Source of the DNA: Escherichia phage 308Ecol101PP
Sequence record: OR062945.1
Strand: one strand, 5' to 3'
DNA length: 64,000 nucleotides
Shown here: positions 5,026 through 42,934 of the stretch, in pieces
How positions within the stretch are numbered: the stretch's first letter is position 1
How the letters are laid out: every line of letters begins with the position of its first letter
Notes under the pieces: model-generated
The model's input: the letters and a program-made list of their open reading frames with translations, nothing else
What the model was told of the DNA's origin: nothing
The model's database searches: none
Translations under genes and position numbers: made by a program

Positions 5026-5988
5026 ATGATTACTATCAATTCCAAAGAACACATTCTAGAACAGAAATATCGTCCTTCTTCCATTGACGAATGTATTCTG
5101 CCTGCGTATGACCATGAAACATTCAAGTCTTTAGTATCTAAAGGAAAACTTCCTCATATTATTTTGCACTCTCCTTCTCCTGGTACAGGTAAAACAACCG
5201 TAGCAAAAGCATTATGTAATGATATCAATGCCGAAATGATGTTCGTCAACGGTTCTGATTGTAAGATTGATTTTGTACGGGGACCGTTAACCGCATTCGC
5301 TCGTTCAGTCTCAATGGAAGGCAAGCCTAAAGTTATTGTTATTGATGAATTTGACCGTAGTGGCCTCGCCGAATCACAACGTCACCTTCGTACGTTTATG
5401 GAAGAATTCTCTAGTAACTGCTCTATTATTATTACTGCTAACAACATCGATGGAATTATTGAACCATTACGTAGTCGTTGTCGAGTTATCGAATTCGGAC
5501 GTCCAACCGAAGAAGATAAAATCTCGATGATGAAGAAAATGATTCATCGTATGGTTGAAATCTGTAAGAACGAAAATATCGAAATCGCTGATATGAAAGT
5601 TGTTGCAGCTCTGGTTAAAAAGAACTTCCCAGACTTTCGTCGAACAATTGGCCAATTAGACCAGTACTCGTCTAAAGGTGTTCTTGATGCGGGTATTTTG
5701 TCTATCGTAACTAATGACCGTGGCACAGTCTCTGATGTTATCGAAGCAATGAAGAACAAAGATATCAAACAGCTTCGTGCATTAGCTCCAAAATATGCCG
5801 CAGATTATTCATGGTTCATCGATAAATTAGTTTCAGAATGTTATGACCAAGTTGCACCTGGTAAAAGTATTATTTCGCTTTATGAAATTGCAGGCGAAAA
5901 CAATAAGTTTCATGGATTAGCAAGTAATATTGAATTACATGTTATGTATATGCTTCTTCAACTGACCTGCGAACTGACTTGGAAATAA
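5026..5988 (+). CDS. 44: gp44 clamp loader large subunit (AAA+)
   Basis: 320 aa; Walker [11 protein letters not shown], Walker [12 protein letters not shown] motif (LRSRCRV). Confidence 0.95.
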
Positions 5989-5989
5989 T

Positions 5990-6553
5990 ATGAACTTATT
6001 CGATGATGACGTCCAGCTTAACGAGCACCAAATTGCATGGAAGTCTAATGACGCTGATGCGATTCAAAAATGTGCTGATATGTTTAAAGAAAAACCTGAG
6101 AATGAATTCTTTAAAATCATTAATGCTATTAATGAAAAGAAATCTATGTCAATTGCTCAGGTCGACTACTCAAAATTTATGGTTGAGAACTCATTATCCC
6201 AGTTCCCAGAATGTATGCCAGCTGTTTACATGATGAACTTAGTCGGTTCTGAATTAAGTGATGAAGCGCACTTCAACTATATGATGGCGGCAATTCCGCG
6301 TGGTCGTCGATTCTCTAAATGGGCTAAACTAGTCGAAGACACTTCAGAGTTACTAGTTATCAAACTGTTGATGAAACATTACACAATCAACATGAATGAT
6401 GCTACTGAGTATAAGCGGCTCCTTGAAAAAAATAACAAGTTGCCAATAGTCCTTAAAGAACTGAAGGCCATGGTCACTGATGAGTTTCTCAAAGAAGTTA
6501 CAAAAAATGTGAAAGAACAAAAACAATTTAAAAAATTAGCATTGGAATGGTAA
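5990..6553 (+). CDS. 62: gp62 clamp loader small subunit
   Basis: 187 aa directly downstream of 44, coupled start; matches T4 gene order and size. Confidence 0.85.
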
Positions 6554-19888: not shown

Positions 19889-20206
19889 ATGAAAACCATC
19901 GATTGTAAAGCAGAATTTAAGATTTTTTATCACGGTTCAAGTAGTTCAGCTAACATCGAAAACATGCTTTGTCCTCCTGAGGAAACAGGAGTTCTGTCTG
20001 AAACCGGACGTAAGAAAAACTTGGATCGTGTATTCTTTACTGAAGATATCGGTTTAGCAAAGATTTATGCAGGACGAGCAGCACGCTCTTATGGAGGTGA
20101 ACCACGTCTCTATCGAGTAATTTCTCCGGTAGACGTAGTTCAAATGAATGATACTAAAGGTGCTACAGTTTATCACGCTGAATGGGCATTTTGTGAGGAA
20201 ATATGA
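19889..20206 (+). CDS. hypothetical protein (105 aa) with H-G-S ... Y ... E residues
   Basis: ORF with SD GGAGAACAAA; FYHGSS, IYAGRA, YHAEW blocks. Confidence 0.5.
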   Translation: MKTIDCKAEFKIFYHGSSSSANIENMLCPPEETGVLSETGRKKNLDRVFFTEDIGLAKIYAGRAARSYGGEPRLYRVISPVDVVQMNDTKGATVYHAEWAFCEEI

Positions 20207-20394
20207 GCAAATTAACTAAAGTTACTTTTATAGGTTGGTTTAAAAGCGGTGAGATGTTCACTAAAGATATCATGTTATCAGGTGATCGCGAAGAAATCGA
20301 GTGGGTTACGGTACAACTTGCTGAAGTGAACAACGCATTAGTTAAAGCATTTGTTAATGACGAGAAAGTTTTTGAAGCTGATTTCAGAGGATAA
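20203..20394 (+). CDS. hypothetical protein (63 aa)
   Basis: ATGA-coupled start. Confidence 0.45.
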   Translation: MSKLTKVTFIGWFKSGEMFTKDIMLSGDREEIEWVTVQLAEVNNALVKAFVNDEKVFEADFRG

Positions 20395-20395
20395 T

Positions 20396-20608
20396 ATGTA
20401 TTCAACTGTGTTTAAACCATCAACATACGAATTTGCATCAACTACACAATGGAAAGCTCTTATTCTGGAAGGATGGGAACTAATGATGGACTGTGAAGCA
20501 TCTGAAAAGTTTCCGCACGGCAAAGTGGACTTCGTTAAATTTGCTGTACGTCCGACTAAACGACAGATTCGTCAAGAAAAACGCAAATTTCGCAAAAGTT
20601 TAAAATAA
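20396..20608 (+). CDS. hypothetical protein (70 aa)
   Basis: ATG 20396 after CAGAGGATAA; ORF track starts at 20351. Confidence 0.45.
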   Translation: MYSTVFKPSTYEFASTTQWKALILEGWELMMDCEASEKFPHGKVDFVKFAVRPTKRQIRQEKRKFRKSLK

Positions 20609-20610
20609 CT

Positions 20611-20640
20611 GTTTACAAGCACCACATACTGTGTTACTAT
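20611..20640 (+). promoter_or_regulatory. early promoter
   Basis: GTTTAC, 18-nt spacer, TACTAT. Confidence 0.5.
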
Positions 20641-20668
20641 CTTTTTATCAACTACAGAGGAAATTAAA

Positions 20669-21037
20669 ATGAAAAAATTAATCGCTTTAGCAATGGTATT
20701 TGGATTAACCGGATGTGGTGCCCATGGCTTTATCCCTAATAACGTTGGCCAATTGATTTACAATCCGAATGTTAAACAATATGAACAACCTAAAGTTGAA
20801 GTGGAAGACCCGGTTACTGTAGGTAATCGAATGATTCAAGCTGATGCCCATGCTCAACGTTATCGTGACTCTGATACTGTAGCTGTGTCAAAGGAACAGC
20901 GCGTTAAAGAACATTGCTTACAGGCTACTGAAATCGCATTCATTCGCTATGTTGAAACAACCGGTAAAGAGCCTACCCAGAAACAAATCGCGAATAACTA
21001 CGTCCAGTGTATTGAACGTTTAAACAAATTTAATTAA
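20669..21037 (+). CDS. putative lipoprotein (122 aa)
   Basis: Signal peptide MKKLIALAMVFGLTGC with lipobox L-T-G-C; SD GAGGAAA. Confidence 0.6.
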   Translation: MKKLIALAMVFGLTGCGAHGFIPNNVGQLIYNPNVKQYEQPKVEVEDPVTVGNRMIQADAHAQRYRDSDTVAVSKEQRVKEHCLQATEIAFIRYVETTGKEPTQKQIANNYVQCIERLNKFN

Positions 21038-21040
21038 TTG

Positions 21041-21073
21041 GTTTACGCCAAAGTTAAAACAAGATGCTATAAA
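21041..21073 (+). promoter_or_regulatory. putative early promoter
   Basis: GTTTAC with TATAAA about 21 nt downstream (spacing atypical). Confidence 0.3.
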
Positions 21074-21098
21074 CATAACAAATCAAGAGGAAATTAAC

Positions 21099-21347
21099 AT
21101 GGAATTATTCGTGGCTAGTTCAGTAGCAGTTTTAATCGCAGGTATTGGTTCAATCATCATTTACATGTTGCCTTGGGTAATCGCACTTATTCGTGGCACA
21201 AAAAGCACAACAGCAATCTTCTTTGTATCTTTACTCTTTAACTGGACGATGATTGGTTGGATTGGAACTTTAATTTGGTCTATTGTTGCCGAAAAGAAAT
21301 CTGCTCAGCAGCCTCAACAAGTAATTATTATTCGCGAAAAAGAATAA
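21099..21347 (+). CDS. small integral membrane protein (82 aa, 2-3 predicted TM helices)
   Basis: Hydrophobic stretches VAVLIAGIGSIIIYMLPWVIALI and FFVSLLFNWTMIGWIGTLIWSIVA; SD AGAGGAAA. Confidence 0.55.
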   Translation: MELFVASSVAVLIAGIGSIIIYMLPWVIALIRGTKSTTAIFFVSLLFNWTMIGWIGTLIWSIVAEKKSAQQPQQVIIIREKE

Positions 21348-21352
21348 ACTTG

Positions 21353-21382
21353 TTTACATTATAGATGGACTATAGTATAGTA
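21353..21382 (+). promoter_or_regulatory. early promoter
   Basis: GTTTAC, 18-nt spacer, TATAGT, AGTCCTATC downstream. Confidence 0.55.
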
Positions 21383-21410
21383 GTCCTATCAAATCAACTA
21401 AGGAGTTAAA

Positions 21411-21704
21411 ATGAAAAAGTTATCATTGGCAGCAATCTTACTCGCAGTATCATGTGCACCAGCTCCAGTTACGGCAGGTTATGATAAAGACCTCTGTGAG
21501 TGGTCAATGACTGCAAATCAAGAAGATGTTGAACAACAAATCTTCTCTGATATCATGAACATCACTAAACGAGACCGTCCTAATATGGTTAATAAAGTTG
21601 TTGAACAACTTAAGTCCGGTGGTATCATGCAGTACAATTATGTTTTGTATTGTGACCCTAATTTCGATAACAAAGATATCGTAACCGAAATCACAGGTGA
21701 ATAA
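21411..21704 (+). CDS. putative lipoprotein (97 aa)
   Basis: Signal peptide MKKLSLAAILLAVSC with lipobox; SD AAGGAG. Confidence 0.6.
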   Translation: MKKLSLAAILLAVSCAPAPVTAGYDKDLCEWSMTANQEDVEQQIFSDIMNITKRDRPNMVNKVVEQLKSGGIMQYNYVLYCDPNFDNKDIVTEITGE

Positions 21705-21705
21705 T

Positions 21706-22356
21706 ATGATTTATTACATGCACAAAAACGCGCCATTTAAATATGGTAAATTTCCTAATGCACAATGTTATAATATAACGCCGAATGAAAATAATAACGG
21801 TTATCATATTGGTGTAATTTTTGTAATTGTTAAAGATAACGAAATCGTTGCCTGGGCTGATTTTAAAGGTACAACGTATGATGTTAATCCGGTGCCTTTC
21901 ACATATTACAATATAATGGATTTGGCATATGATTATAATTGGTTTAATCATGACGCGTTGGCTCATATTGAAGGTGTAGGATTTGACATCTCTTATTCTA
22001 GCTATTCATTATGTCCTATGAGCCGAGCTCACGGTAAAGATGCATCATATCTTTCATTTCGGAAACGTGTAAACTTCAAACGTAGTACAGAGTATGTCGG
22101 TGGACTCTTTGTTAAAGATAATAAAATAACCCGTATTAGTTATCCTTTAAGTGTAGGTCAAAAAGATGTTGATGTTGATTTAGACTTAACTGAAAATAAC
22201 ATTAATCATATTGCTTCTGTATATTTTGATATCGATGAAAAAATTGTAGTGTGTGGATACGAATTACCACCTGAAGAAAAGGCTGAAGCAATTGAAGTCG
22301 AATTAGAAATTTCTGTTGATGACCAAATATTTAATGCATTTATGAATCGAGGTTAA
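21706..22356 (+). CDS. hypothetical protein (216 aa), AT-rich
   Basis: ATG 21706 after CAGGTGA; ORF track begins at GTG 21697. Confidence 0.5.
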   Translation: MIYYMHKNAPFKYGKFPNAQCYNITPNENNNGYHIGVIFVIVKDNEIVAWADFKGTTYDVNPVPFTYYNIMDLAYDYNWFNHDALAHIEGVGFDISYSSYSLCPMSRAHGKDASYLSFRKRVNFKRSTEYVGGLFVKDNKITRISYPLSVGQKDVDVDLDLTENNINHIASVYFDIDEKIVVCGYELPPEEKAEAIEVELEISVDDQIFNAFMNRG

Positions 22357-22357
22357 A

Positions 22358-22555
22358 ATGACTACTGCAATTTGCACTGGTTCTAAAATTAGTGTTTTTA
22401 CAAGTTTTGAAGATTATGAAGTTGTTTCAAAACACCAATACCATATTAGCGTAAAAGCTAATGATGGTGTAATTTGGAATATTCCACAGTATGAAGGCAC
22501 TACATATGAAGTCACAGATATAAATGGTGACAAAGCAATCTTTGTAATTGATTAA
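22358..22555 (+). CDS. hypothetical protein (65 aa)
   Basis: ATG after CGAGGTTAAA. Confidence 0.45.
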   Translation: MTTAICTGSKISVFTSFEDYEVVSKHQYHISVKANDGVIWNIPQYEGTTYEVTDINGDKAIFVID

Positions 22556-22574
22556 ATATACTCAGGAGGTACCT

Positions 22575-23042
22575 ATGGGTATTATTAACACTGCAATAGA
22601 TTCTGTTTACGCATATAAGTTTATTCGACTAATGCAAAAACCTTTTACCGAATGGAAAGCATACGAAGCCAAAATCATCGATGAACGTGGAAGTGTTCTT
22701 AAACGTCCTTCTACTCCCGAAGAGAAAGCGGCGTATACACCTTTTCATGCTTCAGTTCGTTCAATGAAGCGAATGATGAGCACTGTTCCAGGTCTTAATG
22801 GAATGGCCTCAATGATGTCTGCCTGGAGTGCTGTAGCTTCACGCTATAACATTACGGAAGAACAGCAGAAAGAAATATTTAAAGAACTCCCTTTATTTGA
22901 GGATATGGTTGCTGGTGATTCAGGTGGCAGCCCTCAAGCTATTGCATCAGGAACAACTACAGGTGCAGTCGTAAATAAAGGTCCAGAACAAATTCCTTCC
23001 AAGAAAAGAAAGCGAATTAAAGTAAATATTAATAAGTTGTGA
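22575..23042 (+). CDS. hypothetical protein (155 aa) with basic C-terminal tail
   Basis: ATG 22575 after strong SD CAGGAGGT; ORF track begins at 22548. Confidence 0.5.
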   Translation: MGIINTAIDSVYAYKFIRLMQKPFTEWKAYEAKIIDERGSVLKRPSTPEEKAAYTPFHASVRSMKRMMSTVPGLNGMASMMSAWSAVASRYNITEEQQKEIFKELPLFEDMVAGDSGGSPQAIASGTTTGAVVNKGPEQIPSKKRKRIKVNINKL

Positions 23043-42363: not shown

Positions 42364-42393
42364 TGTTTACAACTAAGTAGGACTATGATATAG
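42364..42393 (+). promoter_or_regulatory. early promoter
   Basis: GTTTAC, 18-nt spacer, TATAGT, AGTCCTATC. Confidence 0.55.
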
Positions 42394-42420
42394 TAGTCCT
42401 ATCTAAAAGAGGATAACATC

Positions 42421-42876: not shown

Positions 42877-42906
42877 GTTTACAACAAGGTAGGATTATGG
42901 TATAGT
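42877..42906 (+). promoter_or_regulatory. early promoter
   Basis: GTTTAC, 18-nt spacer, TATAGT, AGTCCTAC. Confidence 0.55.
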
Positions 42907-42934
42907 AGTCCTACTGAAACATGAGGAACACAAA

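Follow-up and report, generated by a model that had tools for sequence, protein, structure and literature searches.

Organization of the imm.1-imm-sp locus

The 64,000-nt stretch of DNA from Escherichia phage 308Ecol101PP (sequence record OR062945.1) that was analyzed here, referred to below as the window, carries three consecutive genes, imm.1, imm, and sp, on the plus strand (Table 1). Each of the three has a strong Shine-Dalgarno sequence, and their boundaries are exactly those of the three open reading frames (ORFs) delineated in a first-pass annotation that had been made from the sequence alone. In the 2.8-kb region around these genes, the DNA shows 98.0 to 98.5% nucleotide identity to phage RB69 and over 150 coliphages of the RB69-like group (Mosigvirus), and the RB69 reference record (NC_004928) labels the three genes imm.1, imm, and sp. 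The locus is thus already known, and the RB69 annotations date from the deposition of that genome. A repeat search revealed that the translation-start regions of imm.1 and imm are alike but found nothing further, and a search against Rfam gave no match anywhere in the whole window.

Table 1. Genes, promoters, and signal peptide features at the imm.1-imm-sp locus (positions in the window)
Feature	Position	Strand	Description
dmd (upstream)	20203-20394	+	Antitoxin "discriminator of mRNA degradation"; family search and RB69 annotation
Gene 61.4 (upstream)	20396-20608	+	DUF7279; family search and RB69 annotation
T4-type early promoter before imm.1	20611-20640	+	GTTTACA, 17-nt spacer, TG-n-TACTAT
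imm.1 (ORF1)	20669-21037	+	122 aa; DUF5481; equivalent of RB69p037 "Imm.1"
Promoter-like site before imm	21041-21073	+	GTTTACG, 20-nt spacer, TGcTATAAA (21065-21073)
imm (ORF2)	21099-21347	+	82 aa; PF14373; equivalent of RB69p036
T4-type early promoter before sp	21352-21381	+	GTTTACA, 17-nt spacer, TATAGT
sp (ORF3, gene 61.3, Spackle)	21411-21704	+	97-aa precursor; PF25676
Sp signal peptide	21411-21476	+	Residues 1-22; predicted signal peptidase I cut between A22 and G23 (P19-V-T-A22-G23)
Sp codons 14-15	21450-21455	+	Ser14-Cys15 within the signal peptide; Cys15 codon 21453-21455
Gene 61.2, AdfA (anti-DarT factor A; downstream)	21706-22356	+	PF23813 (4.7e-121); equivalent of RB69p034

The block is located in the early region, with dmd and gene 61.4 on one side and adfA (gene 61.2) on the other. 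The dmd product acts against RnlA/LsoA-type toxins, and adfA follows sp directly: two counter-defense genes flank the exclusion genes (positions 20203 to 22356). Insertion of imm.1-imm into the dmd-adfA block was seen only in RB69-like phages. In two closely related RB69-like viral contigs (L004 and L005), imm.1 follows dmd with no gene 61.4 in between, and the junction of the insertion is therefore itself variable.

Some of the surrounding ORFs deserve a comment of their own. Just upstream of dmd, positions 19889 to 20206 encode a 105-aa protein (RB69ORF040c, phrog_2110) that has no match in Pfam or NCBIfam and is labeled "ADP-ribosyl transferase" in phage HX01. Farther downstream, positions 22548 to 23042 hold one 164-aa ORF, which is also single in contigs L004 and L005. 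Its counterpart in the RB69 reference consists of two ORFs, RB69ORF032c and gp61.1 (L001, positions 5775-5966 and 5963-6241), a difference explained by a frameshift in the reference record or, alternatively, by fusion of the two ORFs in the window.

Early promoters

T4-type early promoters have the consensus TTTACW-N17-TAYWAT (PMC4122927). The sites upstream of imm.1 (TTTACA-17-TACTAT at 20612-20640, with an upstream TG) and sp (TTTACA-17-TATAGT at 21353-21381) fit and nearly fit this consensus, respectively, and both have the two hexamers 16 to 18 nt apart, the definition of an early promoter that was adopted here. The site before imm (TTTACG, 20-nt spacer, TATAAA) has a good extended −10 element (TGcTATAAA) but falls outside this definition and was not called in a sigma-70 scan. 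The suggestion in the first-pass annotation that each gene has an early promoter of its own therefore holds for imm.1 and sp but not for imm. No terminator-like site was found in the gap between imm.1 and imm, so that imm could be reached by read-through from the imm.1 promoter, and it may be transcribed partly in this way.

The two promoters belong to a larger class. The window contains 35 copies of GTTTAC on the plus strand and 12 on the minus strand, where ∼20 would be expected on each. Of the plus-strand copies, about 15, including those before imm.1 and sp, are followed by a −10 element at 16 to 17 nt, mostly with an upstream TG.

A small GGACTA/TAGTCC hairpin surrounds the −10 element of the sp promoter and is also found at the 42365 and 42877 sites; the folding energy of the sp-promoter hairpin is not significant by itself. 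In all three hairpin-bearing early promoters (21352-21395, 42365-42410, and 42877-42920), the −10 element is enclosed by the hairpin, which is then followed by CCTATC. The three hairpin promoters recall the promoter-stem-loop (PeSL) cassettes to which gene shuffling in T4-type phages has been attributed.

Imm and Spackle

Imm and Spackle are the textbook superinfection-exclusion proteins of T-even phages. The guess that the cluster mediates superinfection exclusion proved sound for ORF2 and ORF3, which are clear orthologs of T4 Imm and T4 Spackle.

The Imm protein encoded in the window matches the Pfam family Imm_superinfect (PF14373; 1.5e-15, 57.2 bits versus a cut-off of 27.9) and phrog_1039, "immunity to superinfection" (1e-30). 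It is 65% identical to T4 Imm; the two proteins are equally long, each has two hydrophobic stretches, and both end in the conserved C-terminal motif QVIIIREKE. The hydrophobic stretches, at residues 1 to 34 and 38 to 64, fit the earlier description of the middle ORF as a small protein with two or three transmembrane segments, and Imm has been assigned to the plasma membrane (Lu et al. 1993, cited in PMC6832632). The genomic settings differ: T4 imm lies between genes 43 and 42, whereas imm in the window lies between gene 61.4 and sp, and the gap between imm.1 and imm, 61 nt here with a promoter-like site of its own, is only 7 nt in T4. Members of the PF14373 family are also widespread outside the T4-like phages. 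T4 Imm is said to stop the DNA of superinfecting phages from entering the cell (Lu and Henning, 1989 and 1994), and in the 1989 work plasmid-borne T4 imm reportedly sufficed for exclusion, halting DNA ejection. If imm alone is sufficient, Imm.1 is not required.

Sp matches the T4_Spackle family (PF25676) over residues 1 to 96 of 96 (1.1e-42, 145 bits versus a cut-off of 27), as well as phrog_1586, and its entire length can be aligned with the experimental T4 Spackle structures 6X6O (1.4e-39) and 7CN6. It is a full-length ortholog of T4 Spackle (gp61.3, PF25676; PDB entries 6X6O, 6XC0, and 7CN6), with 66% identity. Both proteins have 97 aa, a 22-residue signal peptide with an A-x-A-type cleavage site, and the pair Cys29/Cys81, and both are encoded upstream of gene 61.2; sp is preceded by gene 61.4 in T4 but by imm in RB69-like phages. 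The predicted mature form of Sp has 75 aa and contains the Cys29/Cys81 pair, and Pro19, Ala22, and the two residues of the disulfide pair, Cys29 and Cys81, are invariant across Spackle homologs. A truncated version was noted in Klebsiella phage vB_Kpn_AM_K4 (a 288-kb record; L033, positions 1105-1407), where sp is cut off after ∼48 residues of the mature region and carries a long N-terminal extension.

The function of Spackle is well documented in T4. Overexpressed gp61.3 is freed from the periplasm by freeze-thaw, and N-terminal sequencing revealed that its first 22 residues are gone (Kanamaru et al., PMC7650644); a mature protein of 75 residues likewise remains once the periplasmic localization signal has been cleaved (Shi et al., PMC7677548). 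Structurally a helical bundle, Spackle exerts an allosteric effect on gp5 (PMC7650644); the two form a 1:1 complex in which the gp5 lysozyme is inhibited (PMC7677548). The inhibition affects gp5 and not the T4 e-lysozyme (T4L), and it blocks the penetration of the cell wall by later phages (PMC7677548, PMC7650644). The MliC/PliC proteins are also periplasmic inhibitors of a lysozyme, MliC with a lipid anchor, but they have no homology to Spackle, which is a helical bundle, and nothing ties Imm.1 to lysozyme.

A conserved Ser-Cys pair in the Spackle signal peptide

The first-pass annotation had counted two lipoproteins in the cluster, with LAVSC as the lipobox of ORF3. This assignment stands for ORF1 (L-T-G-C16) but not for ORF3, whose LAVSC is not a textbook lipobox and whose T4 ortholog is cut after residue 22 and is soluble. 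The A-V-S-C of the window Sp (L-A-S-C in T4 Spackle) failed the strict lipobox pattern, having Ala at −3, and passed only a permissive PROSITE-like one.

Nevertheless, the residues in question are well preserved. Across 34 distinct Spackle sequences, with identities as low as 45%, Ser14-Cys15 is unchanged, whereas most of the positions around it vary. Among these homologs, the Ser14 codon is drawn from both the TCN and the AGY family, and Cys15 is encoded by either TGT or TGC, which argues for a constraint on the protein. Furthermore, a strict lipobox (Val or Leu at −3, Ala or Ser at −2, and then Ser-Cys) is present in 32 of the 34, the lineage of the window being an exception. These observations would agree with Spackle being lipid-anchored at Cys15, instead of or besides its soluble release, so that ORF1 and ORF3 would both encode lipoproteins. 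The T4 data would be compatible with such a form, as they come from soluble overexpressed protein released by freeze-thaw, and a membrane-bound, N-terminally blocked form would have escaped detection. We nevertheless consider lipid anchoring of Spackle improbable. Two laboratories place the start of the mature T4 protein at residue 23 (PMC7650644) or find a mature protein of 75 aa (PMC7677548), which makes the known functional product a soluble protein and not a lipoprotein. The signal peptidase I site (Pro19 and Ala22) is as invariant as the Ser-Cys pair, and the A-V-S-C of the window is the least canonical lipobox in the family. Besides, the Spackle family is modestly diverged, with about one-third of its columns invariant throughout, so the invariance of Ser14-Cys15 is not a strong statistic. 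Were Cys15 modified after all, Spackle might have two fates, with part of the protein lipid-anchored in the envelope where the tail tip emerges and the rest cut at residue 22 and soluble; this, too, seems a rather unlikely outcome. Cleavage after residue 22, as in T4, is the reading adopted below.

Imm.1, a predicted lipoprotein

Imm.1 matches PF17578 (DUF5481; 1.7e-9, 38.4 bits versus a cut-off of 27) and phrog_1754 (1.8e-28) and is 33% identical to T4 Imm.1. Its N terminus is a textbook lipoprotein signal (residues 1 to 15), with MKK followed by a hydrophobic core and L13-T14-G15-C16; the codon of the lipobox Cys16 is at 20714-20716, and the residue at +2 is Gly. The strict pattern [LVI][ASTVI][GAS]C, placed behind a basic n-region and hydrophobic core, was applied to every ORF start of the window (1385, from ORFs of at least 40 aa). 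It was matched by imm.1 and only two other, spurious-looking ORFs, and such rarity indicates that the Imm.1 lipobox is not a chance feature. Imm.1 is thus predicted to be exported and lipid-modified at Cys16, and it would probably be sorted to the outer membrane, because Gly, not Asp, occupies the +2 position.

T4 Imm.1 (PF17578), annotated as a "predicted membrane protein," shares with Imm.1 from the window a lipobox (LAGC in T4 and LTGC here), a YNPNVK motif, and the pair Cys83/Cys114. It also contains an additional Cys pair (C33/C44) and the sequence VVNQSDVGK after the lipobox, both of which are lacking here. Two AlphaFold2 models of Imm.1 have mean pLDDT values of 62 to 64 and consist of a disordered region up to approximately residue 44 followed by three helices, of which only the last two are confident (pLDDT of ∼90). 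The invariant Cys83/Cys114 pair is located on these last two helices and probably forms a disulfide, a predicted staple of the small helical domain.

Foldseek searches with Imm.1 retrieved nothing from PDB and only orthologs from BFVD; matches in Pfam and PHROGs were limited to DUF5481 orthologs, and NCBIfam gave none. Nothing relevant to Imm.1 or DUF5481 turned up in the literature searched. The family is tiny, with 7 matches in a set of 1.8 billion representative proteins, while a profile search gave 8 clusters. A spanin role was considered and rejected: imm.1 is an early gene that is not located beside lysis genes, and its product has a helical domain.

Several database entries for this family appear to be in error. 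Imm.1 homologs are called "iduronate sulfatase" in several GenBank/RefSeq records (H39, H42, H69, and H20), which is implausible for proteins of 122 to 126 aa and seems to be an annotation error passed from record to record. In a 198-aa metagenomic protein (P0003), a fragment of DNA polymerase A is joined to the C-terminal 29 residues of Imm.1; this is probably an assembly chimera.

Distribution of imm.1 and its linkage to imm

The imm.1 gene was found directly 5′ of imm in all seven lineages examined that carry it. The pair occurs in three genomic contexts: 43-imm.1-imm-42 in T4 and three metagenomic lineages, FRD3-imm.1-imm, and 61.4-imm.1-imm-sp, the last being confined to RB69-like loci. 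In the other sp loci examined, sp comes straight after 61.4 or has no imm nearby. The restriction of the 61.4-imm.1-imm-sp arrangement to RB69-like loci indicates that in these phages the imm.1-imm pair was relocated to the vicinity of sp.

The gene is not a constant companion of imm. In one Gaprivervirus and one Dhakavirus, imm.1 is missing and imm comes directly after gene 43; in some T4-like sequences (P0024 and L003), imm.1 is split or frameshifted. The lipobox is retained in T4, P0022, P0023, P0024, and P0026 and is replaced in P0002 and P0027 by an ordinary signal peptide with a cleavage site after AHA (followed by Ser or Glu).

In a Moonvirus (Merlin gp46) and in a T4-like Klebsiella phage (Roth76), the gene immediately 5′ of imm encodes a predicted lipoprotein of 146 to 147 aa with an LTGC lipobox. 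These lipoproteins share with Imm.1 the lipobox followed by a VVxxSxVGK motif, and hhalign gave a probability of 95% over 30 columns only; homology of Imm.1 to these proteins is accordingly supported for the N-terminal 30 columns. The C-terminal domain of Imm.1 is poorly conserved across genera. The adjacency of imm.1 and imm may stem from a shared history instead of a shared function.

Possible role of Imm.1 in superinfection exclusion

Taken together, these data make it very likely that the locus is an RB69-like (Mosigvirus) version of the T4-type imm.1-imm-sp block, in which Imm and Spackle provide superinfection exclusion and Imm.1 would serve as an accessory. By homology to T4, the genes would be read by the host RNA polymerase right after infection. 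Imm would then enter the inner membrane and there block the passage of DNA from T-even phages that arrive later. Spackle would be exported by the Sec pathway and lose its 22-residue signal peptide, and the resulting 75-residue helical protein, with a Cys29-Cys81 pair, would bind 1:1 to, and inhibit, the lysozyme domain of gp5, the tail spike protein of the incoming phage. With the gp5 lysozyme inhibited, the tail cannot cut the cell wall. As for Imm.1, its sequence suggests that it could be lipidated at Cys16 and delivered to the inner leaflet of the outer membrane, with a flexible stretch of ∼30 residues and the small helical domain facing the periplasm. In RB69-like phages, the move of imm.1-imm to a position beside sp has gathered all the exclusion genes in a single block.

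What Imm.1 does at that location can be approached through its gene neighborhood. Because imm.1, where present, immediately precedes imm in every case, its product is most likely a dispensable accessory in the envelope-protection process of Imm. It is also possible, although rather less probable, that Imm.1 has a periplasmic role apart from Imm, such as protection from lysis from without, an action on cell-wall enzymes or nucleases, or the timing of lysis, and that the two genes are simply co-inherited as a small unit. The capacity of Imm to work alone, as reportedly seen by Lu and Henning in 1989, would be in line with such independence, as would the occurrence of Imm without Imm.1 in two genera and widely beyond the T4-like phages and the poor conservation of the C-terminal domain between genera. 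However, the adjacency to imm survives relocation into three different neighborhoods, and in distant genera a gene for a lipoprotein with the same N-terminal motif precedes imm, which favors a role in the same process as Imm.

The first-pass annotation had also raised receptor masking as a function of these envelope proteins. For Imm.1, this would mean a role of the T5 Llp/Cor kind, in which an outer-membrane protein blocks adsorption to the receptor or its triggering. As a small, early, predicted outer-membrane lipoprotein of a phage, in a superinfection-exclusion context, Imm.1 does resemble Llp and Cor-type proteins, and in general terms it belongs to one class with Llp (PMC9586334). Yet no sequence or structural similarity to these proteins was detected, Imm.1 resembling its own orthologs alone in both sequence and fold. 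The lipid anchor has been lost in two lineages, and imm.1 travels with imm and not with receptor-binding genes. T-even exclusion, unlike that by T5 Llp/Cor, acts elsewhere than at adsorption: secondary phages still adsorb, and lysis inhibition depends on their adsorption. Receptor masking thus found no specific support at this locus, and we regard it as a highly improbable function of Imm.1. Modulation of host envelope stress responses, which the first-pass annotation had named as well, likewise received no specific support.

The initial observation of an envelope-directed early gene cluster is therefore partly confirmed, and its interpretation is partly supported. An accessory role beside Imm remains the preferred reading for Imm.1. 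As a discovery, the block matters little, and its residual value lies in the predicted lipoprotein Imm.1 and in the conserved Cys residue of the Spackle signal peptide. If Imm.1 does help Imm, the superinfection exclusion of T-even phages would gain a third component.
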